A stretch of DNA of 64,000 nt from a candidate division WWE3 bacterium (lineage in GTDB: Bacteria > Patescibacteriota > WWE3 > UBA101185 > UBA10185), in contig QZJF01000017.1 of NCBI GenBank assembly GCA_003599255.1, forward strand, positions 35,940-99,939, given 5' to 3'. The first letter of the stretch is position 1; each line of letters begins with the position of its first letter. The notes beneath the pieces are model-generated. The model had not been told where the DNA came from. It worked only from the letters and a program-made list of their open reading frames with translations, and searched no databases. The translations under genes were made by a program, and so were the position numbers. Of the stretch, positions 13,765-49,509 are shown piece by piece.

Positions 13765-16700
13765 ATGTTCGATGTTATAATTGCAATTGAAATGGTACGC
13801 AGTATCCTTCGAAAAAAAACTTTTAAATCTTTTCTGTTTTTATCCTTGATAAGTCTTATAAGCGCGGGTACATTTCATGTTTTTGCTCAGGGTGTAGGAG
13901 ACAATTATGTTATGGGAGGTCCCCCTCCATGGTGTCCTCCCCCTGAACATCCGGGACTTTCCTCTGTGTGCGGAACGGTGAGAGGTTCTCAACTCGAAGT
14001 GGACGGACGTGGTAATTACATGCCTAATCTCCCGAAGGAAGGTATTACAGTAGCTATTTATGAGGAAAACCCTCTTACACCTACAGGAAAAGTTAGTGAC
14101 GAAACAATAAATGCTGAGGGTGCCCTTTCTAATATTTTTGCCTCTACATCTACAAACAGCGAGGGCCGCTATCATATCGTGATGAGAAAAGTCGGACCTC
14201 CGATGGTCAGAACACACCTCGTTTTTCTGTGTGGAAGTACTGTTGTAGGTCATAAAGAGCTTGATTCCTGGCATGATTACTGGGAAGTGAACGAACAGGT
14301 AAACTGTCCTGGAACTCCTGCGTATACACTTCCCGGGTTTCCCCAAAACTATGTCGATCGATCGGGGTTTTTAGGATGTTTTAATGACCCTGTTGTGGAT
14401 ATTCCCACCGGACTGTCCAAAAACGAACAACCGACGGTAAACAACATTGGGAGGGAGGACAATTATGATCACAGGTATAATAGAAATACTTTCAGTTTTA
14501 CACATCCATTTCCTGATCCACCGGTACCGCCTTTGAGTTTTGAAAGTCCAGGAGGTTTGTGGGAACCGGACTGCTTATTAAGGAAAAACAAATACCTGTG
14601 TAATGCCGGCCCTGCGAATGCCGCGCCACCGGCCCCGACATCTTGTGATTGGAATACACTGAGCACTCAACCCCAGATAGACAATCGGGACACCCCCCTC
14701 TGGTATGCCGGATATACGGTAGATGGTGAGCTTTGCGAGGACCCCTACACCCCTATGCAAGAAGATGATAGGAGAGACTATATTACAAGACCGTTCTTTA
14801 TGTTTATTCCTAAAATCGCAACCACAACAGAGGGATATCGACGATTTGATATACGCGTAAATCTTGAAAACTACATCGCGGACCCTCTGATACCGCTTCA
14901 GTGGATGTGCAAATTTTGGGGATGCTCTGCAGGGGCGCCCAGTGAGCCTCCGCATGTGTTCCTTAGAAAATTCATGCAGGATAATACAACGTTAGATCTT
15001 CTTCCGGACTGTGAAGAACTGAATAAGAGGAATAATGCCTATAAGATTTTCAGAAATCCCGAAAGAAATAAACAATTAAACGGGGGTCCGTTTGGAGGCA
15101 TGGCTTCTCCTTCTGATGATTTGGAAAACGCATACTACGCATCACTTAGAGACCTTAGTGAGCCTATCTGCGTTACACCCACGAGAGATCAAACCAATCC
15201 CGTGCGACTATGCGAAATTCAACCGACATGGTCACCTGCAGGGGTTTGTACCGTAGGAACTCCGGGATGCAATGACCCCGAATTTTCAACAAGATTGAAT
15301 CAGACGCTTAGTACGGCAACTGACCCCAACGTCATAACAGGTATTACTAATGCCCTGTCCTTATGCACCGGTGATTTTGTTCTTGGCAGTGAATACTTCC
15401 CAACTGACGCAATTTTCAGAAATCAAGCTTCATACACCGGAATGACTTCCAGGACAGCCAATGACTCACAAGGTAACACTGCAACCAAAAAACCGGTTGT
15501 ACACGAAGCTTTTGACTCCGAAGATGTAAGTACTCATGAGTCAGGATCCAGGGCAGTACAAGATCCCGGCGGTAGATTCAAAGGCAATTCCGCATTGAGC
15601 CCGGAATCCGTAATAAACCTTCAAATGCAGGTACCGGGAGCGGAATCGATGACTGATCCGTTTACAATACCTTATGCTGATGTCAAAGTTGATTATCTGG
15701 ACGAAGTTAGCTGGGGTATGGCGGATTTCGGAACGAATCAAATACCTAAATGTACCATTGGAAATCCCTTTAGCTATTTGTTGAATACGTTAGCCCAGGA
15801 ATCAGATACAAATTTTCATCCGGATAACATCTATAGGGGTAATTTGGATCATGTAGAACATAGGGCGGTAGGAACCGGAACCTTCTATCCCTCACTAGAT
15901 TCTAAGGATAGAGATATTGCTATGGGAACCAGAACATTTATCGGATATTACTGGGGAGTCGGCTTCAGGGAGTTAGGTGTCCAAAGCGATCTGGTAAATA
16001 TAGCGTTAAATACTTTATGGGGAAGAGACGTTTGGGACAGTATATTGTCTATAGCGGGCGGTGACACCAATATCCATAACTTCACATTTGACATAGGCGC
16101 CGTATTGGCAACCGGGTGGGATGCGCTTGCAACACCGGAGCATATTTTTAAAACATTCGGGGACAGAGACCCCTCACAACAAACCCCATTTGAGAAGCCT
16201 TACTATGAAATAGAGTATCCCGTTAATGAAGCCAATTTCACCACATTCTTTGAATTACCAAGTATAGCTGCCGGAGATCAACTGCTTCCTACTGATTGGG
16301 GTCCTGCACACGTTTGTTATGCCTTTGATCCTCCAAATCCAAATGTACCTGAGGGAGAAGTGTGTGGCACGTACAGAGAAGATCCTGATGGAATATCAAG
16401 AACGTGTCGTGTAGATGAATGTATTGCTTTCTGGCAGGTCGAGAGCCAAAGATGTGAGTGTACAACCAGCGATGGAGTTAACTTTAATTGTGACTGGGAA
16501 GATCCTACATGGGACATTGATTTCGGCGATTGCGATGTGACTGAACGTCTTGAATGCGCATTTGAACAGGAAACAACTCCAAGGAGCGCGGACGGCAGAC
16601 TTGGAGGAGGAGATCCTGAAGCACCTAATGAAATCATCCACGATGAGGACCCGGATGTGGATCCGGGCAACGGTGGAACTCACGACGATTATGTCGGTTG

Positions 16701-18075
16701 CTATAACAGTAGTGGCGGCAGATGTCCTTACGATCCCCCCAGTGTCGAAGCGACTCATAACTGTACTGATAGCAATATTAACTGGAGCAATTGCTTTGAT
16801 TCATTAGGTGTATGGATCTGCGGAACCATAACAAGGGGGTACACCCGTACTACCACAGGGGATACAAAACCACGCTGCGATATGTCCGTTGCAGGACCTT
16901 TAAAGGGCGGTATTGGATGCAATGCCACACTAACAATAGGCGATGTTGCCTTGAGATACAGTCAACAAAATCCATATGACCCGGGCGACACAATCAACCC
17001 TTATTACAAGCCCCAAGTAAACCTGGATGATATGTACATATCCGGGGTAAAGCTTTCCCTTTCTTTCAGAGCGCCTTATCATCCCGCAGTGAAAGGTTCT
17101 AAAAAGGCGACTTTGGATGCAAGAACCACAAACAGTCCTATGGCCACCGAATATGCTTATACTTACGGTGCGGAATTAGATACCGGAGGATGGTCGGACT
17201 ACGCCAATATTGCTCTTATAGCTACTCCTCCGGTTTTCGACGGCGACCCGACGGATGACCTCGCAGAATTGTTCTATCACTGCGATACCATAGGCTCCTT
17301 TACACCTATTGGAGCAAACGATCCTCCTGCCGTGCAAGTTGCAAGTATGAATGTACTTACAACATATGATCCTGAATTAGGATTAGCGGTGACAGACACA
17401 GATGGGGACGGGGTAGCCGATGCAGCATTAATGGGCTGGCAATGTCCAATAGACAACGAACCGGTACCTCCTGTAGCCGAGTTGTCTGATGTCAGCAACA
17501 ATTGTACGGTAGACGCAGGCACTCTTGCTTCTTGCGGGGCAGCGTTTCCCGAAGTACCGGATTTACTCTCAGAAACATTTAGAATTGTAATAAATAACGC
17601 CGCCACCAGATTCGATATACCAGCGGGCGCCCTAATTGCAATTCTTGCCAACGAGGGTGGTTTTGCCTCTGTTTATCATTCTCTGTGGGCAGATGATCTC
17701 ACGGTGCAAAGATGGAGCCTTCCTTACTACGGACGTATGGATGTTGGGGGGCCTGTAACATGTATCGATATGGTATGGTCGGCACAAGGTCCTTATCAAT
17801 TCCTCAAAACTTCATTTGACTCCTTCCTGGCACAATCGGGCGCTCCAAATGAAAGCCTTTGTGCGGCATTAAATGAAATTTCACCGGGCAGATGTCTGTC
17901 TGCCAGCAGATGCAATTTCCTCGATGCATCGTACGCCGCAGCAAGACATATGCAAGCGGGAGGAACTTGCGGCAGCTTTAACTTCGCCACTGCGATGGAC
18001 AGTTATAGCGGGGGATCAATTGCGATTGAGGGAGATATCGGATATCTTCAGAGCATATACAACGCATGTAATTAA
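13765..18075 (+). CDS. giant secreted/surface protein (1436 aa), Cys-rich, with possible C-terminal lysozyme-like domain
   Basis: Signal-peptide-like start (FLFLSLISLISAGTFHVFAQG) and many Cys and Pro/Gly-rich segments. The C-terminus has ILANEGGF...GPYQFLKTSF, resembling the SLT E-S...GLMQ motif arrangement. Its GC is higher than the flanking DNA. Confidence 0.5.
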   Translation: MFDVIIAIEMVRSILRKKTFKSFLFLSLISLISAGTFHVFAQGVGDNYVMGGPPPWCPPPEHPGLSSVCGTVRGSQLEVDGRGNYMPNLPKEGITVAIYEENPLTPTGKVSDETINAEGALSNIFASTSTNSEGRYHIVMRKVGPPMVRTHLVFLCGSTVVGHKELDSWHDYWEVNEQVNCPGTPAYTLPGFPQNYVDRSGFLGCFNDPVVDIPTGLSKNEQPTVNNIGREDNYDHRYNRNTFSFTHPFPDPPVPPLSFESPGGLWEPDCLLRKNKYLCNAGPANAAPPAPTSCDWNTLSTQPQIDNRDTPLWYAGYTVDGELCEDPYTPMQEDDRRDYITRPFFMFIPKIATTTEGYRRFDIRVNLENYIADPLIPLQWMCKFWGCSAGAPSEPPHVFLRKFMQDNTTLDLLPDCEELNKRNNAYKIFRNPERNKQLNGGPFGGMASPSDDLENAYYASLRDLSEPICVTPTRDQTNPVRLCEIQPTWSPAGVCTVGTPGCNDPEFSTRLNQTLSTATDPNVITGITNALSLCTGDFVLGSEYFPTDAIFRNQASYTGMTSRTANDSQGNTATKKPVVHEAFDSEDVSTHESGSRAVQDPGGRFKGNSALSPESVINLQMQVPGAESMTDPFTIPYADVKVDYLDEVSWGMADFGTNQIPKCTIGNPFSYLLNTLAQESDTNFHPDNIYRGNLDHVEHRAVGTGTFYPSLDSKDRDIAMGTRTFIGYYWGVGFRELGVQSDLVNIALNTLWGRDVWDSILSIAGGDTNIHNFTFDIGAVLATGWDALATPEHIFKTFGDRDPSQQTPFEKPYYEIEYPVNEANFTTFFELPSIAAGDQLLPTDWGPAHVCYAFDPPNPNVPEGEVCGTYREDPDGISRTCRVDECIAFWQVESQRCECTTSDGVNFNCDWEDPTWDIDFGDCDVTERLECAFEQETTPRSADGRLGGGDPEAPNEIIHDEDPDVDPGNGGTHDDYVGCYNSSGGRCPYDPPSVEATHNCTDSNINWSNCFDSLGVWICGTITRGYTRTTTGDTKPRCDMSVAGPLKGGIGCNATLTIGDVALRYSQQNPYDPGDTINPYYKPQVNLDDMYISGVKLSLSFRAPYHPAVKGSKKATLDARTTNSPMATEYAYTYGAELDTGGWSDYANIALIATPPVFDGDPTDDLAELFYHCDTIGSFTPIGANDPPAVQVASMNVLTTYDPELGLAVTDTDGDGVADAALMGWQCPIDNEPVPPVAELSDVSNNCTVDAGTLASCGAAFPEVPDLLSETFRIVINNAATRFDIPAGALIAILANEGGFASVYHSLWADDLTVQRWSLPYYGRMDVGGPVTCIDMVWSAQGPYQFLKTSFDSFLAQSGAPNESLCAALNEISPGRCLSASRCNFLDASYAAARHMQAGGTCGSFNFATAMDSYSGGSIAIEGDIGYLQSIYNACN

Positions 18076-18244: not shown

Positions 18245-19597
18245 TTATCTGCCTTTCTTCTCGTTCATTATGGAGCTGTATATAAGGTCTGGTACCTTGA
18301 AAGCGTAGCCGTACCCGAATATGAATATGAAAAGAATTCCGAAGACAGCGTAGAGATAACCGGAAAAGCCTTGGAAATACCCATCCGGAGTCAATCCGTT
18401 CCTAATAATGATTATACCGAACATGTGAATAAGTTGTATTGTGGCGCTTATCGCTACTATCCCAAGACCCCAAGCTATCATCTGCTTAAACCAGTTGATC
18501 ATTTGACTGTCGTTCCCGGGTATCGCCGAGAGAGCAAACTTAAGCGGAGCGGTAACAATCGAGGTTATCATTTTCATATAAATCATTAATGCTTTAAATA
18601 GCGCAAAAAGGTACATGCCAAAAAGTATAACCATTGCTATAGCAACTATTATACCTACGGCCAGCCCACTACCTCCGGAGGCGATTATAAAACCTATTAT
18701 GACCATAGCAATAGCCCCGATACCGCCTTGAAGTGACGCTGTGTAATCCGTTCCTCCGCCCGTCGAGGCAGCAAGTGAGGCAATAATGCTTTGGGCGCTG
18801 TAGTAGAGAGACCATGCCAGACTGGTCATAAACGCACCAATGGGATAGCTAAAAGCTATAAGAACAAGCGCAACCACTATTTTGGGAAGAGCATATTGAA
18901 CGTTAACAACAACCTGTTGATTGATTCTCCTTCTGGTTATGATTGTAATGCCCACATACAGCATAATTAACGCCATTAAAGCGTAAGCGATATTTCGTGT
19001 AATTTTCCAGATATCAAGAATTGCGTTTATAAAAGTGTGCTGATAATCCACCGAATCGGCTGCAAAAGCCTGTTCACCCACAATCGGGATTTTTTTACCG
19101 TAATCCAGGAAAAAAAATGCGGTACTTACAGGAAGAGGCTCATACTTCAGATTATTGTCCAGGTAATAGGCTAAACCAAGTATGCTCCCGGAGACTTTGC
19201 TGCTTGCAAAACGTTGACGATCAAACTGTCCGTTATAAACAAACTGGTTGACTATGTTCCTACAAGTGTCTTCATCAGTAGCACTGCATCCCCAGGCCTG
19301 CATTTCTGATTGAACTTCAGGGAAATATTGGGAAACATAATCCGTGCAATTCATAAACTCGGCCATTTCAGTACCGGTTGTTGTTGTCCAAGTAAAATCG
19401 ACGACAGAGCTTGTCAAATGGTTGACCGCAGTTTCTCTGATATTTCTGTCATAAGAACTCTGAATTTTTCCAAACCATCCCTCAGGGGGATCGCACACAT
19501 TTTGGGCACTAGCACCAGGCGACAATAACATAGCAACAAATAAGAAAGGTAATATATAAAGAGTCTTTAAGGTTAAAGTGTTTTTATCTCCCAGCAT
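18245..19597 (-). CDS. VirB6/TrbL-like polytopic membrane protein
   Basis: Signal peptide, then an ~150-aa Cys-containing extracytoplasmic domain, then 6-7 Gly/Ala-rich TM helices (IGFIIASGGSGLAVGIIVAIAMVILFG), which is the TrbL/VirB6 architecture. Confidence 0.5.
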   Translation of the reverse strand: MLGDKNTLTLKTLYILPFLFVAMLLSPGASAQNVCDPPEGWFGKIQSSYDRNIRETAVNHLTSSVVDFTWTTTTGTEMAEFMNCTDYVSQYFPEVQSEMQAWGCSATDEDTCRNIVNQFVYNGQFDRQRFASSKVSGSILGLAYYLDNNLKYEPLPVSTAFFFLDYGKKIPIVGEQAFAADSVDYQHTFINAILDIWKITRNIAYALMALIMLYVGITIITRRRINQQVVVNVQYALPKIVVALVLIAFSYPIGAFMTSLAWSLYYSAQSIIASLAASTGGGTDYTASLQGGIGAIAMVIIGFIIASGGSGLAVGIIVAIAMVILFGMYLFALFKALMIYMKMITSIVTAPLKFALSAIPGNDSQMINWFKQMIAWGLGIVAISATIQLIHMFGIIIIRNGLTPDGYFQGFSGYLYAVFGILFIFIFGYGYAFKVPDLIYSSIMNEKKGR

Positions 19598-19695: not shown

Positions 19696-22600
19696 ATGGC
19701 AGACAATCCTTTTTATCCCGGATATAAACCGGAGCCCTGGGAACAAAAACCCTCGGAATTCTATCCCGGTTATTTCCCGGGAGCACCTCAACCCAGAAAG
19801 GGATACATTCCCCCTAATATAGGTCCGCTTCCTTATAACTTTGATAGTGTTCTAAAAGAGATCGATATGATTCAGGGGAATGTCGATCTTATGACCTCTG
19901 ATCTTCCTAAATGGGTGTATGAACGCGCCGTCGACGACTTCAAAAGATCCCTGCAGGTTACTATGAAAACCGCAGATATTAAGCCCGAAGAGCTGGATGA
20001 CTTCGATGCTGAATCAATACCGGGTGCATTTAATATAGGGGTGAGTTTGAATCCCATGGATTGGTGGAAAGATCCGGCGGGACAGGCTCAAAAAACGGTT
20101 AAAAACTGGGCAAAGGAAGCCTTTTCATGGAAAGACATAGACACTCGATTCAGAAGGGACCTATGGAGCCAAATATTGGACGAAAAACCAAACTATACCT
20201 TTATAGGTTCAAAAGAAGCGGCAGATGCACTGATGGAAAGGGTTGGTAGACGTCCCGCGGGCGCAGGTACGCCGTCAATCTCCGCACCGGGGGAAAATCC
20301 ACTGGCACTCAGAGGACTTGGTGTCATGGCTTACGATCCGGATACAAGTGGAAGGTCACAGAGGCAATATTTTGACTTCGCTATTGAAAGAGATACCGCA
20401 GGTCACGTTAAAAGGGAAAATAGAATTTTTGTAGACCCCTCCGGTGCTGCTGTGGTGAGAAGAGTACCGAAAAAGTCGGCGACAGATGTTGACGTTTACC
20501 GTCAAAGCGGGAGATATGACGCTTACGGCAAGCTGGCAAGTTCGGTAATCGAGTTTGAAACAAAATCAGGGTATGCAGCAAGTCGTCAAAATGCATACAC
20601 CGATGTACTTAGAGACACAGTACATGCTATTGACGCGGATCTTGGGCAAGCAAAGTACCGTAATGTTATTAATGCCGACGTTGACAGAAAGAGAGCATAC
20701 GATATCTTCAGATCCCAGGCCGACACTCTAGCAGACATGGAAGTATTACAAAAAAGGTTTGGAAAAGCGGTCTCCGATATAAAGGAGGGAACACTTCTTA
20801 ATTCAGACCGCACAGACTGGGACCGCTGGGATTCTATAAATGAGCAGCTTGATAAATCTCTTGCAAATATTGAAACAAGCTACGGAGTGGGGGGAAAGAT
20901 TGACCTTGTGGACAGAAAAGAAGCGGAGAAGATGCGCCATTTTATAGATCCTTATAAGCAGCATCTTGAACAAATGCGTGATCAGGAGCTGTTGCAAATT
21001 GCAAGGGAGAGAAAACGCCTTTTAACGGAAAAGGAACGCTCCCTTCCGGCACAGCTGCGTGCCGGTACCATAACGCAGGATCAGTTTGACACCCAGATCA
21101 AATCAGTCAATGACAGACTTAACGATATTCACCGCACCGCCTCACAAGGAAAAAGGACTCACGCCAGAAACCTTACCAGCTTGGGAAGAGGCCCTTTTAA
21201 CGGCAGAGGGTATCTTTATAACAACTCTTATATAGAGGTTTACGAGCGCAGACTCCTAGAAGAAGTCGTAACAGTTGACTTCTTACGCCCCAGAGCAAGA
21301 GGTAAAAACAAAAGGATTGGAGATGTAATAGCGGAAGTACCCGGAACGCACGCCTCAAGAGCTATTGGGGTTTTGAACAGAATTGAATATGAAAATCAGG
21401 TAATGGCCATAGATGAGGTGTTTGATGCGTTGACCGAAGGAAAATTCCTAGAGAGATATGTCTGGAACAAGGTTAAAACCTATATTGAGCCCCTCACCCC
21501 GGCATATTGGACAAACAAGGCTTTGGATGGTGTGCATTACTTTGGGTTGAAATTAGGTAAGGACGTTGACTTTGAAAAAACATGGCTTGGCAATATTGCC
21601 GGCACCGGTCGTGCGGCAGGGTCTTATGCCGCTCTGTCTAAAAACCAGTTACAACTTTCCAGAGACATAATCGCAACCCAAAGTGAGTTGAAAAAAGCAG
21701 GGCTTTCGGCCGCAAATAGAGCCAAGTTGAATAGCGATTTAGCGACATTACAGACAAACCTGACATCCGTTCGGGGAAGAATAGACGCACTAAGCGAAAA
21801 AGGTCCCGGTAAATTCTGGGGTAACTGGTTCAACATGGAATTTGACGGAGGTCACCCAAATAGACGGGGACAAGTGGATGCATTTGTATCAAACGTACGA
21901 ATCAGTGGGAGATTTTACGGAGGCGCTCATTTCGCAAGTATAGGGGGTCTGGCTCAGTTAAGAGGCATGGTTCACTCAGGGGAATGGACTCCTGAAGCTC
22001 TAGCTTATTTTATAAAAAATGTAGATCACACAGGTTTGGCGAATCCGGCGTTTTTACAGCGTTTAATGGCTCTCAATGGAAATCGGGCTATCGTTCTTCC
22101 GCCCGGAATCAATGCTGAGGAATTTGCGAATCAAGTTATCAACCTCAGGCAATGGGTTCTAAAAAACAGAAAGAATTTCAGTTCCAACGTAAACATGGAT
22201 TCGGATGCCTTCTGGCTCGGTTTTGTGGATATGGTAGCCCACAAGATGAAGGACCCGGATTTCAAATTAATTGGAATCACCAAGAGATATGCAGGATTGT
22301 TTGAAAAACTGTGGAATAAACTGAACGAATTCCAAACAATGCTTTTCACCAAGTTCGGTAAAGTGTTGGCACCTCTTTCTTATATTAAGACGTTTATTGC
22401 CGAAAAAATAGCCGATATGATACCCAAACTGCTATCACTAATAGCTGGCGGTGCCTCCGGAGGAACTCTCGCTATTGTTACAGAAACCTTGGGGCGTGTG
22501 CTTAGACCCATCATACGTTTTGTCGTAAGAAAAACTCTGGATTTCGCACAAAACTTCGTTGGCGGGCTGATACGAGGAGATTTCTTTAAGGCTTTTGCTG

Positions 22601-23382
22601 AACTGGAAAAACAAGTTCAAGCGTTTATGAGAGCCATGTTGATGGTTTCCGCGGTACCTATGCTCATCATTCTTGTACTTACAACAGCTTTTTTTGGATC
22701 ATCGTCTACAACCATTTCCCCGGTAGATCCTACTAGAAGTCCTGGAACAATAGACGCTTTTGAGACATGGACAGCGGGCGGAGGTGGGAGCATGATAGAA
22801 ATCTTGAATCCAACATCAAGGCCATCTACCACCAGCTGTTTCGAATTTGTAGATGCTCCGGGATCCACAATTGGTCAACACCCTATCGGTACTTGGCCTA
22901 CCTACGAAGTCGATGCCCTCAATGCTGCAATTGTCGAGCTTCAAGCAGTTTCAGGTGGTTATCTGGACAGATTGTGTGCAGCCGGGACCATTGAACTTTA
23001 TTGGGCTCCGTGGGATCCCGGTTGGTGCGGACACGTGTTTGGGAGCATAATAGTATTTACGGACACTTGTTCTTATAGCAGAGCGTATTACAATGCGTAT
23101 CTGTTCGCACACGAAACAGGACACGTTTACAATAACAGAGTCGGATGGGATTCTGTTCCGGGATTAATTCAGTTTGCGGAAGTTGACGACCGCGACGGCG
23201 GAACACTGCCTACCTACCCTGGCGACTGTAGTACCAGTAACACTTCCGGAGAAGATTTTGCAGAAACAATAGGAAATTGGGTCAGAATTAATACTTTTGA
23301 TTGCGCGGGAATAGACGCCACACTTTGGGGACAATTCCCGGCACACTTTGAATTTGCAGACGAAGTATTAACCAGACCTTAG
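19696..23382 (+). CDS. large bitopic protein (1228 aa) with Pro-rich cytoplasmic N-terminus, single TM, and extracellular HExxH zinc-metallopeptidase-like domain
   Basis: No signal peptide and an N-terminal PGY/PxP-rich region. A TM helix near residue 960 (AMLMVSAVPMLIILVLTTAFF). The C-terminal domain has AHETGH and a later Glu-rich EDFAE. No Walker A was found. Confidence 0.45.
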   Translation: MADNPFYPGYKPEPWEQKPSEFYPGYFPGAPQPRKGYIPPNIGPLPYNFDSVLKEIDMIQGNVDLMTSDLPKWVYERAVDDFKRSLQVTMKTADIKPEELDDFDAESIPGAFNIGVSLNPMDWWKDPAGQAQKTVKNWAKEAFSWKDIDTRFRRDLWSQILDEKPNYTFIGSKEAADALMERVGRRPAGAGTPSISAPGENPLALRGLGVMAYDPDTSGRSQRQYFDFAIERDTAGHVKRENRIFVDPSGAAVVRRVPKKSATDVDVYRQSGRYDAYGKLASSVIEFETKSGYAASRQNAYTDVLRDTVHAIDADLGQAKYRNVINADVDRKRAYDIFRSQADTLADMEVLQKRFGKAVSDIKEGTLLNSDRTDWDRWDSINEQLDKSLANIETSYGVGGKIDLVDRKEAEKMRHFIDPYKQHLEQMRDQELLQIARERKRLLTEKERSLPAQLRAGTITQDQFDTQIKSVNDRLNDIHRTASQGKRTHARNLTSLGRGPFNGRGYLYNNSYIEVYERRLLEEVVTVDFLRPRARGKNKRIGDVIAEVPGTHASRAIGVLNRIEYENQVMAIDEVFDALTEGKFLERYVWNKVKTYIEPLTPAYWTNKALDGVHYFGLKLGKDVDFEKTWLGNIAGTGRAAGSYAALSKNQLQLSRDIIATQSELKKAGLSAANRAKLNSDLATLQTNLTSVRGRIDALSEKGPGKFWGNWFNMEFDGGHPNRRGQVDAFVSNVRISGRFYGGAHFASIGGLAQLRGMVHSGEWTPEALAYFIKNVDHTGLANPAFLQRLMALNGNRAIVLPPGINAEEFANQVINLRQWVLKNRKNFSSNVNMDSDAFWLGFVDMVAHKMKDPDFKLIGITKRYAGLFEKLWNKLNEFQTMLFTKFGKVLAPLSYIKTFIAEKIADMIPKLLSLIAGGASGGTLAIVTETLGRVLRPIIRFVVRKTLDFAQNFVGGLIRGDFFKAFAELEKQVQAFMRAMLMVSAVPMLIILVLTTAFFGSSSTTISPVDPTRSPGTIDAFETWTAGGGGSMIEILNPTSRPSTTSCFEFVDAPGSTIGQHPIGTWPTYEVDALNAAIVELQAVSGGYLDRLCAAGTIELYWAPWDPGWCGHVFGSIIVFTDTCSYSRAYYNAYLFAHETGHVYNNRVGWDSVPGLIQFAEVDDRDGGTLPTYPGDCSTSNTSGEDFAETIGNWVRINTFDCAGIDATLWGQFPAHFEFADEVLTRP

Positions 23383-23396
23383 TATATAATTAAAAT

Positions 23397-24038
23397 ATGA
23401 ACATAAGCAGGTTTATAAGTTTCAACGACGCCAAGACAAGAAAAAGAGCCGTGGGTGTGATATTTATGGCAATAGTACTGTTATTGATAATTTTGGTCTC
23501 AGATCCCCAACCTCAACAACCTACAACCGATACAGACGTTCCCGGCGAAAGTCCTGCTGTTGTTCAGGACTACGAGAGCCCAAATGCGTGGAACGGTATA
23601 AAACCTGGTACTCATAAAATCACCGATGTGGCGAATTTCTTTGGAACTGAAATACGCGACGATTATCAAGGGGATGGCAAGACAAAATATTTATATGATT
23701 ACTACGGTAAGGGAGGCCATCCGATGGAAGTCATAACCGATTATGTGGGAACTATTGAATACATGCGTGTTCCGTTAAATGAAACTAAAGTAGGTAGTCT
23801 GGACACGTACAGAGAAAGTCTCAAGCTCGGCGTAGCGGACATGGAATTGTATAAAATTGGTGAGCCTGAAGGCATCAAAGTATATGTTTTTCTTGAGGAG
23901 GGCGTAGCATTCGAAGCAAATCAGTATGTAAGGGAAACATACGCCATCAGATTTTTTGTCCCTACTGATAAAGATACATTTTTAAGATTATACGGCAGAG
24001 ATTTATCCGAAAATATTGAGGACGCTTCAAAATTTTAG
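23397..24038 (+). CDS. N-terminally membrane-anchored hypothetical protein
   Basis: 213 aa, TM helix AVGVIFMAIVLLLIILV, then a Pro/Gln-rich linker and a soluble domain. It starts 15 nt after the 1228-aa gene. Confidence 0.4.
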   Translation: MNISRFISFNDAKTRKRAVGVIFMAIVLLLIILVSDPQPQQPTTDTDVPGESPAVVQDYESPNAWNGIKPGTHKITDVANFFGTEIRDDYQGDGKTKYLYDYYGKGGHPMEVITDYVGTIEYMRVPLNETKVGSLDTYRESLKLGVADMELYKIGEPEGIKVYVFLEEGVAFEANQYVRETYAIRFFVPTDKDTFLRLYGRDLSENIEDASKF

Positions 24039-24502
24039 TTTTGATAGTTGGTAATTTCCGCAGCATCGAGGAAATTAATGAGACCAAGTTCTATTCTGTC
24101 CAAAAGGAAATTAGGTGAAAGTATTGAACCAAAACCCACAAGATTGGCGATTATCATAAAAAGGGCAAAAAATCCTGCAACAACTAAAGCTCCTATCAAT
24201 GCATATGTCCATGTCTTTTGAGCACCCTGAAAACCCTTGGGATCCCCAAGAGCCATCGATAACTTTATAGCACTGTACGCGACTACAAAGATAAATACTA
24301 AACCTACCAAAAGAACCGCAACGTTTAGAAGTCGGGCAATCATGCAGACTATTGCTAAAGGACTTGGAGCTTCTCCGGCCGCTACCTGTGAGTCAAAATT
24401 GGCACAATTGTATGTGAGTGCATACGCCGGAGCTGATCCAAAAGTCAGGACCAGAACAAAAAATAATATTGAAAATAGCCTATTAAAATCCCGGATCTTC
24501 AT
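24035..24502 (-). CDS. VirB2/TrbC-like pilin-family protein (paralog 1)
   Basis: Signal peptide, then a two-helix hairpin with the connecting loop motif LGDPKGFQGAQK that it shares with the neighbouring paralogs. Confidence 0.45.
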   Translation of the reverse strand: MKIRDFNRLFSILFFVLVLTFGSAPAYALTYNCANFDSQVAAGEAPSPLAIVCMIARLLNVAVLLVGLVFIFVVAYSAIKLSMALGDPKGFQGAQKTWTYALIGALVVAGFFALFMIIANLVGFGSILSPNFLLDRIELGLINFLDAAEITNYQN

Positions 24503-24836
24503 TTATTAATCCATTGGCGTTGGCGCCAAAACTTCTAAACACAATAGTCTTAATGGCAACTGCCATTAAAGAAAGCATAATACCAAGAATACTCCAGAAG
24601 GCTGCGTCGCGAGCCTTTTCTATAGCCTTGGGATCGCCCTTGGTCATAAGAAACTGAATAAATGCCCATGCCAAGCCTATTGTTGAAACACTAAAGCCCA
24701 ATCCAATAAAAATATTCACAATGAGAGAAGCTATAGAATAGATGTCCGTAAATTGCGTTGCCCTTTCTCCCGGAGGAGCAGCACTTGTGAGGGCATTTTC
24801 TAGTTCATTAAACATACTTTCCTTTATGTATTCCAA
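24483..24836 (-). CDS. VirB2/TrbC-like pilin-family protein (paralog 2)
   Basis: 117 aa with two hydrophobic helices separated by a TKGDPKAIEKA loop. Confidence 0.5.
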   Translation of the reverse strand: MEYIKESMFNELENALTSAAPPGERATQFTDIYSIASLIVNIFIGLGFSVSTIGLAWAFIQFLMTKGDPKAIEKARDAAFWSILGIMLSLMAVAIKTIVFRSFGANANGLINEDPGF

Positions 24837-24901
24837 AGGGCCTGAGCATGCCCAGGCCCCGTGTTAAATAGTCTAAAACTATTATGCACACAATGGTGAC
24901 G

Positions 24902-25234
24902 TTAGATGGTAACGTTAGTACCAACGTTAACGTTGTTACCACCGGTGAACTGAGTTATAACAGCTCTCAGTACGAATACCAAGAACAGACCAACTCCTCC
25001 GACGACTGCGTAAGTAACCCATTTCTGGGCCTTTTCAACACCCGCCTTATCACCCTGCGACATAATATACTGAATGAAACCGAGGGCAAGCATTATAAGT
25101 ACTAAGGCGAAACCCACACCAAGGACTAAGTTTAATATGAAGGCCAACAACTCCGCCAGCGAGCCTATTCTTCCTCCTAAAGGATCGCTTACAGAAGTAT
25201 CAACCTGTGCGTATACTCTTTGTAATAATTGCAT
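24902..25234 (-). CDS. VirB2/TrbC-like pilin-family protein (paralog 3)
   Basis: 110 aa with two hydrophobic helices separated by an SQGDKAGVEKAQ loop, followed by a Gly/Asn/Val-rich C-terminal tail. Confidence 0.5.
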   Translation of the reverse strand: MQLLQRVYAQVDTSVSDPLGGRIGSLAELLAFILNLVLGVGFALVLIMLALGFIQYIMSQGDKAGVEKAQKWVTYAVVGGVGLFLVFVLRAVITQFTGGNNVNVGTNVTI

Positions 25235-25268
25235 ATGTTTAAGTTTTTATCTATTCACCTCCCTTACA

Positions 25269-27080
25269 TTAAAACCCAACTGATACACCTAGTATCGACC
25301 TAATTATAACCCGTAAAATCGCTACAGACAACAGAATGAAGAATGTACCGATGATTGCGGCTGTCAGCTCTTCCTGACCGTCTTTGACTTTTTGCGGGTT
25401 TCCTTCGCTGGTCATTAGGGTATAGCCTGCTTTCACTATAAAGGCTATGCCTATGAACAACGCGATCGGAAATAGAAGGGTATATAGCCGCGAGATTAAA
25501 TCATGGAATTCGATAATAGGACCTGTGTAGGCAGCGACGATTACTGTAGGATTGCAAGCACCTGTAGGATCTGGAACACAATAGCCGGATTGGCAGACAT
25601 ATCCTGATGTACCCGAGCAACACCCGGTTCCAGTGCACTGCGTTCCTGTTGTGTTGATAATACACTCTCTAGGAAGAGTAGTTGAGCAGGTCCAGTTCGG
25701 GTGCGTGGTGGGACAACAGTCTGCGGGACCTGAACAGGGGTCGCCCAGACTGGCAGTACAAGTGGCAGTCTCACAAATATACTCCGGTCCATAGTATACG
25801 CAGCTATAATCCGCACCAGTGTCACAACACGGGTCCCCTGTAGGCGTACAAAGGTTACCCGGTGCTTCACACGCACCTGTGGGCTGACAAGTAGGTGGCG
25901 CAAGAGTTGAGTCGCACGTATAAACAACCCCGCTCACATCACAACACTCCGCATCGGGATCCGGATTGGAAGAATCACAAACAGGATCGCTGGGCAGACT
26001 GCATAATGAATTGGGATCAAGGCAATTAAAGGTACCGTCATTTTCAGGATCCAAGCACTGGTCGGTTGTAATTTCGCATACACAGGAGCCGTCTACCCCG
26101 GAGCACGCGCCACCAGTAGGCACTCCTAGGCAACGCTTAATGCCGGAAGCATCAAAGTCACACACCCCACTACCACATTGACTATTCAGCCAGCATAACT
26201 CACCGTTGGAAGCTAACCCGCCACACTGATTGATCGGGGGGGCATCCATACATCCAGCTGTAGTGGTGCCTGTCAGCAAATTCTGGGCTGTCTCGTACAT
26301 ACCATCAATACACTGAATGGCACTCGTAGTATCGTTACAGCAGAGAACGCCCAGCGAGTCACTGCAAAGCGTTGGAGGGTCGCTGACGGGACTTGGCGTA
26401 CTGCCTCCGGCACACTGCCCACACTCCCCGGTCGTGGCACTGTTAGTATAAATACACTCTTGTGACGGACTAGCTCCTGTAACCTGTTCGCAACAGGCCA
26501 TGGTACCGGGAGGATCGCTAGCAGGTGGCGGAGTGTTGTCACAGGCCCCGCCAGGTCCGGTACAGCAGGCACCATCCGGATTATAGGCACACCAAAGCTC
26601 GTAACAAGTTGGGGCAAAGCCATTATTTCTGCCCATCATTCTGAATCCTGCCGGACATAAATTATAATTCGGGCCCGCAGGGGGAACATCGCTTGCGTCT
26701 CCGTTCGAACAACTCGGTGCCAAAACTGTATCATCTACATCCCAATAGTTTGCTTCATGTAACCATCCCCACCCCGTCCAAGTAGCATCGGTGTGACACT
26801 CGTTACCAAACAAATTGGCAGGATCCGCACAAAAAGCCTTGTCTATCGCGTTATATCTTAAAAGTGCATCCGCATCAAAAGTGTAAGGACAGCAAGAAAA
26901 ATTTGAGGAAGCAGGACAACCAGCTGCCGCCCCTGTCTGTGAGGAACACTTTATCGCTTCGGGCTGACCTAAAAGTACCGAACACGAAACCGTTCCCGAC
27001 TGTGCATAAGACACATTAGAAAACAAAAGAATGGCAAAAGAAAATAAAAATATTAGCTTGAATGTTCGTACAAATTTCAT
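25269..27080 (-). CDS. extremely Cys-rich secreted protein with C-terminal pilin-like two-helix hairpin (pilin fusion; candidate tip/adhesin subunit)
   Basis: Signal peptide, then ~500 aa with very frequent Cys (many CxxC/CC/CxC), Gly, Thr and Pro. The C-terminal ~80 aa (IGIAFIVKAGYTLMTSEGNPQKVKDGQEELTAAIIGTFFILL) repeats the helix-GxP(K/Q)-helix motif of the adjacent pilin paralogs. Confidence 0.5.
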   Translation of the reverse strand: MKFVRTFKLIFLFSFAILLFSNVSYAQSGTVSCSVLLGQPEAIKCSSQTGAAAGCPASSNFSCCPYTFDADALLRYNAIDKAFCADPANLFGNECHTDATWTGWGWLHEANYWDVDDTVLAPSCSNGDASDVPPAGPNYNLCPAGFRMMGRNNGFAPTCYELWCAYNPDGACCTGPGGACDNTPPPASDPPGTMACCEQVTGASPSQECIYTNSATTGECGQCAGGSTPSPVSDPPTLCSDSLGVLCCNDTTSAIQCIDGMYETAQNLLTGTTTAGCMDAPPINQCGGLASNGELCWLNSQCGSGVCDFDASGIKRCLGVPTGGACSGVDGSCVCEITTDQCLDPENDGTFNCLDPNSLCSLPSDPVCDSSNPDPDAECCDVSGVVYTCDSTLAPPTCQPTGACEAPGNLCTPTGDPCCDTGADYSCVYYGPEYICETATCTASLGDPCSGPADCCPTTHPNWTCSTTLPRECIINTTGTQCTGTGCCSGTSGYVCQSGYCVPDPTGACNPTVIVAAYTGPIIEFHDLISRLYTLLFPIALFIGIAFIVKAGYTLMTSEGNPQKVKDGQEELTAAIIGTFFILLSVAILRVIIRSILGVSVGF

Positions 27081-27168: not shown

Positions 27169-28977
27169 ATGAAAGGTAATATTGTCATACACAACCTGCT
27201 CAAGTCTTTTCTACTGCTGTCGCTTTTTTTTACAGCTTCATCCTTTCTCATTTCTAAAGCGGACGACCCCTGCAAAAACATTCAGGATCTTGATGACCGC
27301 GCTGCTTGTTACGAAAAAGAAATTGAAGAAAGAGAGGAAGAGTATCAATCCACGTCAAAAAAACTGTCTGAGGTCAGATCAAAGAAAAACGACATCTCCA
27401 GCAAAATAAATGAACTTGCGGGGCAATTGAACGTAACCCAGGCAGAGTTGAATGAAGTCGATAGTGATATTAAAAGCTTGCAGGCGGTTCTTGAGGAAAT
27501 TAACAAAAATCTTACCGACAGAAAGGACAAACTGTCAGAAAAGATTGCCCTTAGAAATCACGTTATAAGGAATTATTCAAAAAGAACCTTAATGAACGAC
27601 CTCGAACTTTTCTTTGGGGCAGGTATGGGAGATACAAAACTATCAGGATTTCAGCTATCGTATATGACCTACATGTTTAATAAGTCGGTGAGTGATGAAG
27701 CAATAAAATTGATTAAGGCACTAAATGCGGAAATTGGGAATTTTGAAAAAGATAAGGCGGAAGCTGAAAAATTAAAGGGGGAATTGGAGACAGAAAAGAA
27801 TAATCTTGTGGCACTAAAGAACGATCTTGATAACAGAAAAGCTAATGCACAGGGAGAATACAGTGAACTTGACGAAAAAGAAACCGGGTATGAAAGAGAC
27901 CTGGAGAACATTGAGGAAGAAATTGAAGATCTTTCCGAAAAACAACAGGCAATATTGAAAGCAAAGTATGGGGACGAAAACGGAACCGTAGGTGATTATG
28001 CGTCTCCCACGGCAAAAACACCAGACCCTCCCTTTAAACCAGCTTTTGCAGCATTCAGTTATGGGGCGTACACGCACTACAACGGAATGAGCCAATACGG
28101 TGCAAAAGGACGCGCCGAAGACGGTGACGATTACAAGGAGATTTTGGAATTTTATTACAAAACCGGAGTCGAAGAAAAAGACGGCTTTCCCGATTCAATA
28201 GAGGTACAAGGTCACGGAAAGATGGATTTCCAGAAATATCTATACGGTATAGCTGAAATGCCCGGCGACTGGCCCATGGATGCTCTAAAGGCGCAAGCAA
28301 TAGCTGCAAGAACTTATGCGTATAGATCAAACAAACCTATATGCACGACTCAATCCTGTCAGGTTTTCCTAAAGAGCAAATCGGATAACCCGCCCTCAAG
28401 ATGGAAACAGGCAGTTGATGATACTGAAGATAAAATACTTAAAGATCCCAAAACGTCCCAATACTCATCCACGACCGGAGGTTATATAAACAACGTAGGA
28501 TGGGATGCGGACGGAAAATGGCCGGGAGACGCATACGAAAAGAAAGCCGGATCTCCCTGGTTCTACAAAGCCTGGTACACAAAAAGCTACAACACCTCTG
28601 AAAGCTGCGGACATCCTCATCCATGGCTCACTGAAAAAGAGATGGCGGACATACTTAATGCCTGGGTCGTATGGAGAAAAGGATCTAACAGTGACAAGGA
28701 CAGAATTTCTCCTGTTACCACAAGCTGCTGGGGCGGCGATCCCTATTCTGTAGACAAAATGGCGGATAAGGCAGCAGAATTCGGTGAGAAATACACATCG
28801 GTCAGCAGCGTAGATGTGGACATAAGCAACGGCGGTTATACTTCCAAAGTCTACTTCCAGACAAATAGGGGAAGCGTCGCCATTGACGGAGATACTTTTA
28901 AAACAGTCTACAATCTAAGAGCCCCTGCATATATTTCAATTAAAAGCAGACTCTTTGATCTGGAAAGAAGAAACTAA
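27169..28977 (+). CDS. SpoIID/LytB-domain protein with N-terminal coiled coil
   Basis: Signal/anchor sequence, a ~250-aa heptad-rich charged region, then YLYGIAEMPGDWPMDALKAQAIAARTYA matching the SpoIID amidase-enhancer domain signature. Confidence 0.6.
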   Translation: MKGNIVIHNLLKSFLLLSLFFTASSFLISKADDPCKNIQDLDDRAACYEKEIEEREEEYQSTSKKLSEVRSKKNDISSKINELAGQLNVTQAELNEVDSDIKSLQAVLEEINKNLTDRKDKLSEKIALRNHVIRNYSKRTLMNDLELFFGAGMGDTKLSGFQLSYMTYMFNKSVSDEAIKLIKALNAEIGNFEKDKAEAEKLKGELETEKNNLVALKNDLDNRKANAQGEYSELDEKETGYERDLENIEEEIEDLSEKQQAILKAKYGDENGTVGDYASPTAKTPDPPFKPAFAAFSYGAYTHYNGMSQYGAKGRAEDGDDYKEILEFYYKTGVEEKDGFPDSIEVQGHGKMDFQKYLYGIAEMPGDWPMDALKAQAIAARTYAYRSNKPICTTQSCQVFLKSKSDNPPSRWKQAVDDTEDKILKDPKTSQYSSTTGGYINNVGWDADGKWPGDAYEKKAGSPWFYKAWYTKSYNTSESCGHPHPWLTEKEMADILNAWVVWRKGSNSDKDRISPVTTSCWGGDPYSVDKMADKAAEFGEKYTSVSSVDVDISNGGYTSKVYFQTNRGSVAIDGDTFKTVYNLRAPAYISIKSRLFDLERRN

Positions 28978-40623: not shown

Positions 40624-41934
40624 TCATTCTGCGGGCACAGGATGGGTTGCAGACCAGACGAGAAGGGCCTTTAACGCATCTTCCGCACGGGCGGGACGTT
40701 TTCTGCTCCTGCGGCGCTGGCGTTTGCCGGCATCTTCCTCGGATTGCGTTACATCTTCCTCGGAACCACCGGAATCCTCCTCCTCTTCTTCCTCACTTTC
40801 AGCAGTGTTGCGCCACATCAAACGGTTAACTTGCTGCATCTCCTGAAGAAATGCAGGGGAAGCAAAATCTTCAATCTGGCGCGTCCGCGTGTTAGCCACG
40901 TTAAGCTTGGGCCATCCAGACTTTTGGATTTTGATAAGTTCCCACCAAGCGGTCATCACAGAGGGACCTACTTCCTCAGCAAGGGCAGCCTCGTGGGAGG
41001 GTTTCCCGCTTTCAGCACCGAGCATAGTACTTATAATCGTCAACGTACCACACTCAAAATGCCCGGCAGTAGCAAGCAATCTCTTGGTTGCAGAAACACT
41101 CGCCGTGGAAATACCACCTGAAATCATACCTGCGTTTGCAGGCTTTATGATTTCATCTGAACGACTGTGGCTCATGAGAATACGGGAAGCCGAATCCATT
41201 AGTACCACAACATCAAACCCGCTGCGCGTCAACTGCTTTGCACGTTCCAAAACAAAACGGGCAACCCAGTAGTGTGCGGCCTCGCGGTCTCCATCAGGAG
41301 TTGTATACAGTTCGACCTGCTCCCGATCGTGCTCCACCTCGCGAAGGATGCTGTAAAATCCCGTTCCATCCTCCGCACGCTCACCTACGTGAAGAATCAA
41401 AATCTTCATCTTAGGATTGCTGCGGGAAACATTAAGCAGTCCCCTAAGCACATCCCGGATGAGCCATGTCTTACCAGTGTCCGGGGGTGAAACAATTCCA
41501 AGCCTTTGCCCATATCCGATAGGACTCAGCAAAGTAGCGGCCCGGATAGAGTGAATGCCGAATTTGTCAATTCGAAGTGCCCTTTTGGCGTAGTCAGCAC
41601 GAAGTGCGCCTACTCCTTCGATTTTCGGGCGATCCAGCACTTTTCTCGGATCTGTCAAACCATTTACGGAAATTATTTTGCCGTTTCCGTTAATGGCTAA
41701 CAAATCACCAGTACCAAGTCCCCACTCTACGACAACATCCTTGGGCAGCTCAATACGGTTCTCCCTCATTACTGTGGGATCCGTAAGGTGGTCCCAGGCA
41801 AAAATCCTGAGCCAATCCGCCGAAGGTATGAACGCAGTATTGGGAATAGGCAACTGGCCACTCTTAACCTGCTGCACAGTGGGTTGCAACTCTTGCTGCA
41901 ACACATATGCGTACTTCAAATCTGCCATACCCAT
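40624..41934 (-). CDS. rho: transcription termination factor Rho-family ATPase with unusual acidic/basic C-terminal tail
   Basis: LLSPIGYGQRLGIVSPPDTGKT (Rho Walker A context), VVVLMDSASRIL (Walker B/ITRLARA region) and GTLTIISTML. The C-terminus has E/D/S-rich then R/K-rich ~70 aa not typical of Rho. The gene is GC-rich. Confidence 0.65.
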   Translation of the reverse strand: MGMADLKYAYVLQQELQPTVQQVKSGQLPIPNTAFIPSADWLRIFAWDHLTDPTVMRENRIELPKDVVVEWGLGTGDLLAINGNGKIISVNGLTDPRKVLDRPKIEGVGALRADYAKRALRIDKFGIHSIRAATLLSPIGYGQRLGIVSPPDTGKTWLIRDVLRGLLNVSRSNPKMKILILHVGERAEDGTGFYSILREVEHDREQVELYTTPDGDREAAHYWVARFVLERAKQLTRSGFDVVVLMDSASRILMSHSRSDEIIKPANAGMISGGISTASVSATKRLLATAGHFECGTLTIISTMLGAESGKPSHEAALAEEVGPSVMTAWWELIKIQKSGWPKLNVANTRTRQIEDFASPAFLQEMQQVNRLMWRNTAESEEEEEEDSGGSEEDVTQSEEDAGKRQRRRSRKRPARAEDALKALLVWSATHPVPAE

Positions 41935-49236: not shown

Positions 49237-49509
49237 TTAGGGAATAAGCCCGATAAAGAAACTGGAAATCTTGTCTACCAGCCCGCCGGGAGCAACACCG
49301 TTTTCGACGATGTTGAATGCAAAACCGACGGCCAAGGCGGCTGCCAGGAACAGCTGGAGAACCATCATAAGTCCGCCGCTATCCTTGCTGTCGCCAGCGC
49401 CCTTTACGAGACCCTTTGGACCCAAAAAGACGTTCCAAAGGAGCCCGATGATCCCCGCCAACATGATGAATTCAAGGATTTGGCGGGCCAAGGTGTTTAA
49501 AGCTTCCAT
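49237..49509 (-). CDS. VirB2/TrbC-like pilin-family protein (paralog 5)
   Basis: Start set at the internal ATG at 49509 with GGAGGT upstream. 90 aa with two hydrophobic helices separated by an LGPKGLVKGAGDSKD loop. Confidence 0.45.
   Translation of the reverse strand: MEALNTLARQILEFIMLAGIIGLLWNVFLGPKGLVKGAGDSKDSGGLMMVLQLFLAAALAVGFAFNIVENGVAPGGLVDKISSFFIGLIP

Follow-up and report, generated by a model that had tools for sequence, protein, structure and literature searches.

Why would a bacterium place a secreted, cysteine-rich domain of 489 residues in front of a hairpin that resembles a pilin? The question is raised by a locus in the genome of an uncultured, ultrasmall candidate division WWE3 bacterium (assembly GCA_003599255.1), of which we analyzed 64,000 nucleotides (contig QZJF01000017.1, positions 35,940 to 99,939); this stretch is called the window, and positions refer to it unless another locus is named. 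Four adjacent open reading frames (ORFs), arranged head to tail on the minus strand, encode proteins of 603, 110, 117, and 155 amino acids (aa), hereafter p603, p110, p117, and p155 (Table 1). The first of them, p603, is identical to NCBI entry C4561_03680, a hypothetical protein of a candidate division WWE3 bacterium (Patescibacteria/candidate phyla radiation, CPR). An earlier note on this DNA had proposed that the three small proteins and the C-terminus of p603 share a pilin-like hairpin, and that p603 is a fusion of this hairpin with a large Cys-rich domain. Both proposals were borne out by the profile searches and the Cys count described below. p603 is a member of the PF18895 family (T4SS_pilin, VirB2-like type IV secretion system (T4SS) pilins of Patescibacteria) with a secreted Cys-rich N-terminal passenger.

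Each of the four proteins contains two hydrophobic helices separated by a short polar loop (LGDPKGFQGAQK, KGDPKAIEKARD, QGDKAGVEKAQK, and EGNPQKVKDGQE). With 30.2 bits over residues 527–591, p603 exceeded the Pfam gathering cut-off of PF18895 (26.6 bits). p117 and p110 matched the same model below the cut-off, with 24.1 and 23.6 bits, respectively (E ~4e-5), and p155 had no Pfam match. An independent hidden Markov model (HMM) was built from the C-termini of 149 database relatives, the window's own proteins being left out. All three small proteins were recovered by this model with 24–33 bits (Table 1); the best of 800 composition-matched shuffles reached 10.0 bits. Pairwise matches between the four paralogs were ~23–35% identical. 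The helix-loop-helix architecture of PF18895 was recognizable in p603 from hydropathy, from modelled helices with a predicted local distance difference test (pLDDT) score of 90–96, and from the loop GNPQKVK, and the tandem arrangement typical of the family was present as four adjacent divergent paralogs. A weak NCBIfam match to the Mbov_0395 pilin-like conjugal transfer protein was also obtained. The scores show that the similarity of the four hairpins goes beyond chance and place all four in one predicted pilin-like family, PF18895. They also tie the C-terminus of p603 to the small proteins. The G(D/N)P signature that had been read in all four loops does not hold for p110, which has GDK; the hairpin itself is shared.

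The relation to VirB2, TrbC, and TraA holds at the level of the family, since PF18895 is treated as VirB2-like in the literature, but it did not extend to a match with solved VirB2 or TraA pilins. No protein of the window matched PF04956 (TrbC/VirB2) at E ≤ 0.1. Two relatives of p603 aligned below threshold with residues 35–96 of this model (P0033, E 4.9e-4; P0097, E 5.8e-3); no other direct link in sequence to the canonical pilins was obtained. A fifth paralog had been suggested at 49,237–49,509. Its product is a two-helix protein that scored 4.3 bits with the independent HMM, within the range of the shuffles, and had no Pfam match even at E ≤ 10. Relatedness to the pilins is thus not demonstrable, and we rejected this candidate.

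The N-terminus of p603 is formed by a hydrophobic segment (residues 1–27; a helix at residues 2–21 in the model) with a predicted signal peptidase site between SYA and Q. Removal of the signal peptide would leave a mature protein of ~577 aa. The ectodomain that follows is hydrophilic and contains 58 Cys, 53 Gly, 51 Thr, and 46 Pro residues, all 58 Cys being located between residues 33 and 509. The Cys content of p603 amounts to 9.6%, compared with 0–1.7% in most other proteins of the window and 3.1–4.4% in three exceptions. The "dozens of Cys" of the earlier note were therefore confirmed by counting. Of the three patterns named there, CC is frequent (eight pairs), but CxxC and CxC occur only once each. 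Near the C-terminal end of the ectodomain, the pattern C-x6/7-C-x5/10-CC-x7/8-C-x7/8-C recurs: modules of the type C-C-CC-C-C comprise residues 360–398, 404–436, and 441–473, and a C-CC-C-C-C variant comprises residues 482–509. Outside the hairpin, p603 has no match in Pfam or NCBIfam, and BLAST detected neither similarity of the ectodomain to other proteins of the window nor internal repeats. Directly before helix 1 lies the sequence YTGPII (residues 516–522, window 25,515–25,535), an instance of a [YF]xGP junction motif that could serve as a structural neck or as a processing site.

The full-length AlphaFold model of p603 was poor (pLDDT 53), with two clear C-terminal helices. A model of residues 398–603, based on an alignment of 38 sequences, reached a pLDDT of 86.8. 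It consists of three small β-hairpin modules, corresponding to the last three six-Cys modules, an extended linker, and two helices (residues 525–556 and 562–597) joined by the loop TSEGNPQKVK. Foldseek searches of the PDB with this model gave no significant match. The "Cys-knot" character ascribed to the ectodomain is only suggested, by the Cys spacing and by weak matches to spider knottins, the best being 1kqh (E 0.77, probability 0.38, 29% identity over 38 residues). Besides 1kqh, the weak matches included 5irx_E, 6ax2, and 2n9z, with DkTx and Magi3 among the knottins, and the furin-like repeats of R-spondin. Three of the p603 modules indeed share the C-C-CC-C-C spacing of inhibitor cystine knot (knottin) peptides, together with a small modelled β-hairpin core. 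However, the E values of these matches are at least 0.77, and the p603 modules are chained in a membrane-tethered protein, whereas knottins are free peptides. The conjugation pilus of Aeropyrum pernix (8dfu) appeared at rank 21 (E 3.0). For the hairpin, the comparison with VirB2, TrbC, and TraA structures that the earlier note had in mind returned only generic helical hairpins and no significant pilin match, and a hairpin profile found no pilin among the PDB sequences. Because a two-helix hairpin is too simple to discriminate, the fold comparison neither supports nor contradicts the assignment as a pilin.

How widespread is the fusion? Word-index homolog searches returned 2, 2, and 12 relatives; the search with p603 listed, besides the identical entry, a single relative, a 620-aa WWE3 protein with 56% identity. 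The family was revealed by an exhaustive HMMER search, in which a profile of p603 and its ortholog was run against 1.84 billion cluster representatives and yielded 2909 matches at E ≤ 1e-3 and 286 at E ≤ 1e-10. Of the best 150 of the 2909 clusters, 100 have a length of 200 aa or more; in 90 of these, the part ahead of the C-terminal hairpin contains at least 8% Cys. With a cut-off of 170 aa, 96 of the 150 carry a Cys-rich ectodomain in this position. The fusion, which had been called unusual for VirB2/TrbC-type pilins, is thus unusual in comparison with canonical VirB2/TrbC, but it recurs in related genomes and is common within this lineage. One family member of 565 aa is named "pilin [Patescibacteria group bacterium]" by NCBI.

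The members share a common design, in which the signal peptide is followed by small Cys-rich modules, variable in number, and then by the [YF]xGP junction and a highly conserved hairpin. Across 38–40 distant sequences, hardly any variation is seen in the loop and the residues flanking it (GY.LMTSEGNP..VK.GQE.LT.AI.G). The junction motif is present in 80 of the 96 Cys-rich long forms versus two of 21 short Cys-free forms. A few long members carry Cys-poor, β-rich domains in place of the Cys-rich modules, and ten diverse long members contained no Pfam domain besides PF18895 (two of them also gave the sub-threshold PF04956 matches). From the even number of Cys residues in 69 of 91 complete long forms, and from the 55 of 58 Cys of p603 that align with those of its closest ortholog, a WWE3 protein, we infer that the ectodomain is disulfide-bonded. 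In the same ortholog, the ectodomain is 55% identical (50% outside Cys) and the junction plus hairpin 84% identical to p603.

The passenger is not confined to one side of the hairpin. In a Magasanikbacteria genome and one other (L023 9749–20165 and L024 5146–9499), the hairpin occupies residues ~50–138, after the signal peptide, and is followed by 600–2560 further residues, so that the passenger is located at the opposite end. Taken together with the N-terminal ectodomains described above, these proteins indicate that both ends of the hairpin tolerate large passengers, as would be expected if both ends lie outside.

A scan of one genome per species gave 20 loci, mostly from WWE3, the others being labelled Saccharibacteria, Patescibacteria, or Magasanikbacteria. 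In these loci and in others fetched through individual proteins, the layout is fixed. A SpoIID-domain protein diverges from pilin 1, which is followed by pilin 2 (~110 aa), pilin 3 (~100–120 aa), and pilin 4 (~140–180 aa). Beyond pilin 4, genes for proteins of ~210 aa and ~1030–1290 aa lie on the opposite strand, a gene for a ~450-aa protein on the strand of the pilins, and a gene for a secreted protein of >1300 aa again on the opposite strand. This nine-gene cluster around the four-pilin operon is conserved in related genomes. The four pilin positions are occupied in most of the 20 genomes, and the best match of each small paralog is the same operon position in nearly every genome. Orthologs of p603 occupy the position of gene 1 (20 genomes), those of p117 position 3, and those of p155 position 4; p110 is the best conserved small paralog, its orthologs at position 2 being 42–90% identical. 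The comparison shows the locus to be a conserved chromosomal operon of four predicted VirB2-like (PF18895) paralogs in WWE3 and related Patescibacteria.

Across the 20 species-level genomes, the length of complete gene 1 ORFs lies between 110 and 620 aa, and the hairpin stays conserved throughout. The bare forms (110–134 aa) consist of a signal peptide and the hairpin, i.e., they are ordinary prepilins. The ectodomain thus has the appearance of an insert placed behind the signal peptide and ahead of the N-terminus of the mature pilin. Beyond the closest relatives, the ectodomains are no longer alignable by BLAST. Thus, the passenger varies in length and sequence against a constant background of the hairpin and the three remaining paralogs.

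Two related loci (L008 7764–10264 and L013 297–2911) contain two tandem Cys-rich copies of gene 1 with nearly identical hairpins and different ectodomains. One of these ectodomains is built of another repeated module, CP.PP.GFC..G.C.GG.VPDPQ.R.C.

Table 1. Features of the four-pilin operon, its neighbours, and the parts of p603 (window coordinates; HMM, independent hidden Markov model)
Feature	Position	Strand	Remarks
p603 (pilin 1)	25269–27080	minus	603-aa ORF; gene 1 of the four-pilin operon; putative modular pilin
p110 (pilin 2)	24902–25234	minus	110-aa ORF; PF18895 E 5.5e-5; HMM 32.6 bits
p117 (pilin 3)	24483–24836	minus	117-aa ORF; PF18895 E 3.9e-5; HMM 26.5 bits
p155 (pilin 4)	24035–24502	minus	155-aa ORF; no Pfam match; HMM 24.0 bits
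p603 signal peptide, Sec-type, residues 1–26	27003–27080	minus	MKFVRTFKLIFLFSFAILLFSNVSYA followed by QSG; cleavage site predicted from the sequence
p603 ectodomain, residues 27–515 (489 aa)	25536–27002	minus	delimited by composition; no known domain
p603 four six-Cys modules, residues 360–509	25554–26003	minus	from Cys spacing; three C-C-CC-C-C and one C-CC-C-C-C
p603 YTGPII junction and pilin hairpin, residues 516–603	25272–25535	minus	from models; PF18895 over residues 527–591
SpoIID-domain protein, coiled-coil	27169–28977	plus	PF08486 E 4e-18; diverges from the pilin operon; conserved neighbour
213-aa single-pass membrane protein	23397–24038	plus	ORF; orthologs in L001–L005, L015, and L016 (part of the related genomes)
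1228-aa membrane protein	19696–23382	plus	ORF; no family or PDB match; conserved neighbour
450-aa polytopic membrane protein	18245–19597	minus	signal peptide; conserved neighbour
1436-aa secreted protein	13765–18075	plus	44 Cys; conserved outer edge of the cluster in related genomes

Within the operon, the start of p117 is ambiguous (24,815–24,836). A TTG codon yields 117 aa and an ATG seven codons further in yields 110 aa, the length picked by the gene caller for the ortholog in the related locus L001. The 3' end of the p117 gene overlaps the start of the p155 gene by 20 nt. p155 possesses its own signal peptide, two Cys residues, and a C-terminal tail. Promoter-like and terminator-like sites were not more frequent than in shuffled sequences, and we do not count as evidence a TTGACT-17-GATAAT site that precedes the p603 start by 10 nt.

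Among the neighbours, the SpoIID-domain protein represents a family of peptidoglycan lytic transglycosylases, and orthologs with 48–63% identity adjoin the pilin operon in related loci. The 1436-, 450-, and 1228-aa proteins have no match in Pfam, NCBIfam, or the PDB. The 450-aa protein is a possible assembly platform. An identity as VirB6 could not be shown, as a profile of 12 orthologs matched nothing in the PDB or Pfam, and we do not claim it to be VirB6-like. The 1228-aa protein contains an HETGH sequence (HExxH) at residue 1139, in its extracellular C-terminal part. Because this motif is kept in only five of 13 orthologs, a role as a metalloprotease is doubtful.

Apart from this cluster, the segment 42,000–51,000 stands out by its GC content (0.48–0.51 vs 0.36–0.48 elsewhere) and by the location of all its genes on the minus strand. 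These genes have no recognizable family and code for a membrane protein of 344 aa, an M23 peptidase, a P-loop protein of 647 aa, a polytopic protein of 652 aa bearing a long acidic tail, the 90/119-aa two-helix protein rejected above as a fifth paralog, and a 226-aa protein; none has homologs in the related loci. Among the proteins of the window, the 647-aa ORF product alone carries a Walker A motif; it was assignable neither to VirB4 nor to any other family and had no phage or plasmid match. No T4SS, phage, or plasmid identity could be established for the segment; it could be an island specific to the strain or a secretion module that has diverged strongly. At 40,624–41,934 on the minus strand lies a gene for a 436-aa Rho-like ATPase with a charged C-terminal tail, which matched Rho models with E 3e-31, far below their cut-offs. 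This gene adjoins that for ribosomal protein L25, and in a distant WWE3 relative (L004) an ATP-synt_ab protein adjoins L25.

Which of these features are known? In Patescibacteria, 441 arrays of two to 11 VirB2-like pilin genes have been described in 383 assemblies, with PF18895 among the detecting profiles; members of one array are on average 25% identical (PMC12102498). The present array resembles them in Pfam family, in its tandem divergent paralogs, in the phylum, and in the identity between paralogs. Thus, the tandem family singled out by the earlier note is real, but arrays of this type had already been described. The published pilins are treated as small, whereas gene 1 here carries the Cys-rich passenger; in addition, the present operon has fixed position-specific orthologs and no virB4 within 10 kb. 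The Patescibacterial pilin papers that we searched do not mention pilins with large extra domains. In the literature searched on pilins and cysteine-rich proteins of Patescibacteria/CPR, we met only broad statements about extracellular proteins rich in Cys and about the disulfide enzymes MdbA/VKOR. Hence, the tandem array and the family assignment in Pfam and in NCBI names are already known. What we did not find described in the literature searched is gene 1 with its ectodomain and how often it occurs, the four-gene operon with its position-specific members, and the conserved nine-gene neighbourhood without virB4.

With the canonical pilins VirB2, TraA, and TrbC (PF04956), and with PrgF of Gram-positive conjugation systems, for which a VirB2-like role has recently been proposed (bioRxiv 10.64898/2025.12.18.695078), the family shares the signal peptide, the two-helix hairpin, and basic loop residues. 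The bare gene 1 forms resemble prepilins and fit the size of the mature canonical pilins, which comprise ~70 aa (70–90 aa) without a passenger; mature p603 does not. A pilin module joined to an adhesive or otherwise functional module, as well as a role as a minor decorating subunit, is known from the modular type IV pilins PilB and PilC of Streptococcus sanguinis (PMC8179133). However, the fold and the machinery of type IV pilins are unrelated. They have a class III signal peptide, a single long helix, and a C-terminal passenger, whereas in p603 a Sec signal peptide is followed by the passenger, and the two-helix hairpin forms the C-terminus. The T4SS adhesins VirB5/TraC at the pilus tip and PrgB of Gram-positive bacteria share the proposed contact with target cells, but each is a protein in its own right, not fused to a pilin. 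An adhesin of the PrgB type was not found in Patescibacteria (PMC12102498), which leaves room for a pilin-borne adhesin. Large Cys-rich extracellular proteins of Peribacteria (PMC4736985), compared here by description only, are likewise secreted, rich in Cys, and proposed to act in attachment; they differ by an average length of ~1650 aa, by ~7% Cys, and by having no reported pilin hairpin.

With moderate confidence, we favor the explanation that p603 is a modular VirB2-like pilin whose hairpin takes part in a hetero-oligomeric pilus assembly and displays a variable adhesin ectodomain. The topology, filament formation, display, and adhesion that we infer would proceed as follows. The N-terminus of p603 would be exported by Sec and the signal peptide removed. 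The N-terminus must lie outside, given the cleavable signal peptide and the Cys-rich domain, and the ectodomain would fold there into an N-terminal β-rich part and a chain of small modules locked by disulfides. The C-terminal hairpin would reside in the membrane as in other VirB2-type prepilins, both ends being outside. Helix 1 would run inwards, the basic loop (K564, K566) would be cytoplasmic, and helix 2 would lead back outwards. The hairpin would then join the three small paralogs in a hetero-oligomer, for which a short pilus of the conjugative type, or a stub, is the most plausible form. In solved conjugative pili, the basic loop residues face the lumen, and in the F-pilus structure both pilin termini face outwards. 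A passenger at either end of the hairpin would thus be displayed on the filament surface, in this case at the surface or tip of the pilus. The ectodomain would form the variable, specificity-determining part and would probably act as an adhesin towards the surface of the host cells on which these epibiotic bacteria live. Host attachment is probably the natural function of a hypervariable, disulfide-stabilized surface module in an epibiotic bacterium.

Several observations count in favor of the modular pilin. The higher conservation of the hairpin as compared with the ectodomain, the nearly invariant loop, and the position-specific orthologs argue that the hairpin would not be a passive anchor. 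The conservation of the loop and of helix faces, together with the fixed set of four paralogs, points to a specific hetero-oligomeric assembly instead. The conserved envelope-remodelling and membrane neighbours (the SpoIID-domain protein and the 450-, 1228-, and 1436-aa proteins) also count for this explanation. Other results weigh against it. The nine-gene cluster contains no recognizable T4SS component besides the pilins in searches with Pfam, NCBIfam, and ortholog profiles, including no match to the VirB4, VirB6, or VirB3 families. No VirB4-type ATPase was found within 10 kb of the operon in the 20 related loci, and no large Walker-A protein recurs within this distance in 24 loci. p110 and p117 lack a classical signal peptide. 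The loop of p603 has a net negative charge, so that the positive-inside argument for its topology is weak. The ectodomain matches no known binding domain in Pfam, and its adhesive role is purely conjectural. The 5-start lattice of a pilus would not accommodate a passenger of 50 kDa on each subunit; p603 is thus more probably a minor or tip subunit, and the major subunit is likely to be p110. Finally, no such pilus has been seen in any Patescibacterium, where it is described as a possibility (PMC12857230).

The last point, together with the absence of VirB4 or any other T4SS gene near the operon in more than 20 loci, lead to the strongest alternative, a membrane-anchored surface protein without a filament. 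Here, the PF18895 hairpins would form a membrane hetero-oligomer, a pore or platform built with the 450- and 1228-aa proteins, which would hold p603 as an adhesin or wall-spanning stalk. The cluster's own conserved polytopic membrane proteins would fit such an arrangement, as would the presumed difficulty of fitting a large passenger into a pilus lattice. Against it, the family is tied by profile to the TrbC/VirB2 pilins, and the same family occurs within the essential T4SS cluster of Southlakia epibionticum (PMC12102498, PMC10633639), where the essential pilin array comprises SEML1_0006–0019 (PMC10633639; reviewed in PMC12857230). Moreover, a pilin gene is located near virB4 in 1135 of 1948 assemblies (PMC12102498), which connects the family with T4SS; since it is only 1135 of 1948, pilins apart from virB4 are not unusual. 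We regard the filament-free arrangement as less probable than the pilus.

The junction motif raises a further alternative, in which p603 would be a pro-pilin with a giant leader. Cleavage at [YF]xGP would set free the Cys-rich part, which would act as an effector, inhibitor, or toxin resembling knottins, and the hairpin, now bare, would be built into the pilus. Canonical VirB2, TraA, and TrbC are made with long leaders that are then removed, the junction is largely restricted to the long forms, and the C-C-CC-C-C modules recall secreted knottins. However, the motif is equally explicable as a structural neck, and no protease is consistently encoded in the cluster, the HExxH sequence of the 1228-aa protein being kept in a minority of its orthologs. 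Processing of this kind is therefore improbable. That the hairpins are holin-like small membrane proteins acting with neighbouring cell-wall hydrolases, unrelated to pili, is very improbable, as the presence of small two-helix proteins next to the SpoIID gene and near the M23 peptidase of the 42–51 kb segment is outweighed by the chromosomal, core location of the operon with its fixed order in 20 species, by signal peptides and large ectodomains, which are not features of holins, and by the Pfam assignment to pilins.

For the modular pilin, a bolder extension can be put forward tentatively, although we consider it rather unlikely as it stands. Gene 1 might be the host-range determinant of WWE3 and its relatives, in which chains of small disulfide-rich modules would be extended and swapped at the exposed N-terminus of the pilin and presented on a pilus. 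Instead of a neighbouring VirB4 system, a machinery not recognized so far, made up of the 450-, 1228-, and 1436-aa proteins and the SpoIID-domain protein, would build this pilus. If this extension were true, p603 would be without precedent as a modular pilin in the conjugative-pilus class and would provide a handle on host choice by epibionts.

The tandem array itself is ordinary for the phylum. A T4SS-like system with a pilin array is essential for epibiotic growth in the one Patescibacterium that was testable. Against this background, the widespread VirB2-like pilins with large, rapidly diversifying, disulfide-rich outer domains, always encoded by gene 1 of a fixed four-gene operon, are concrete candidates for the part that recognizes the host. 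The finding predicts a hetero-oligomeric assembly and would extend the idea of the modular pilin from type IV pili to conjugative-type pilins.

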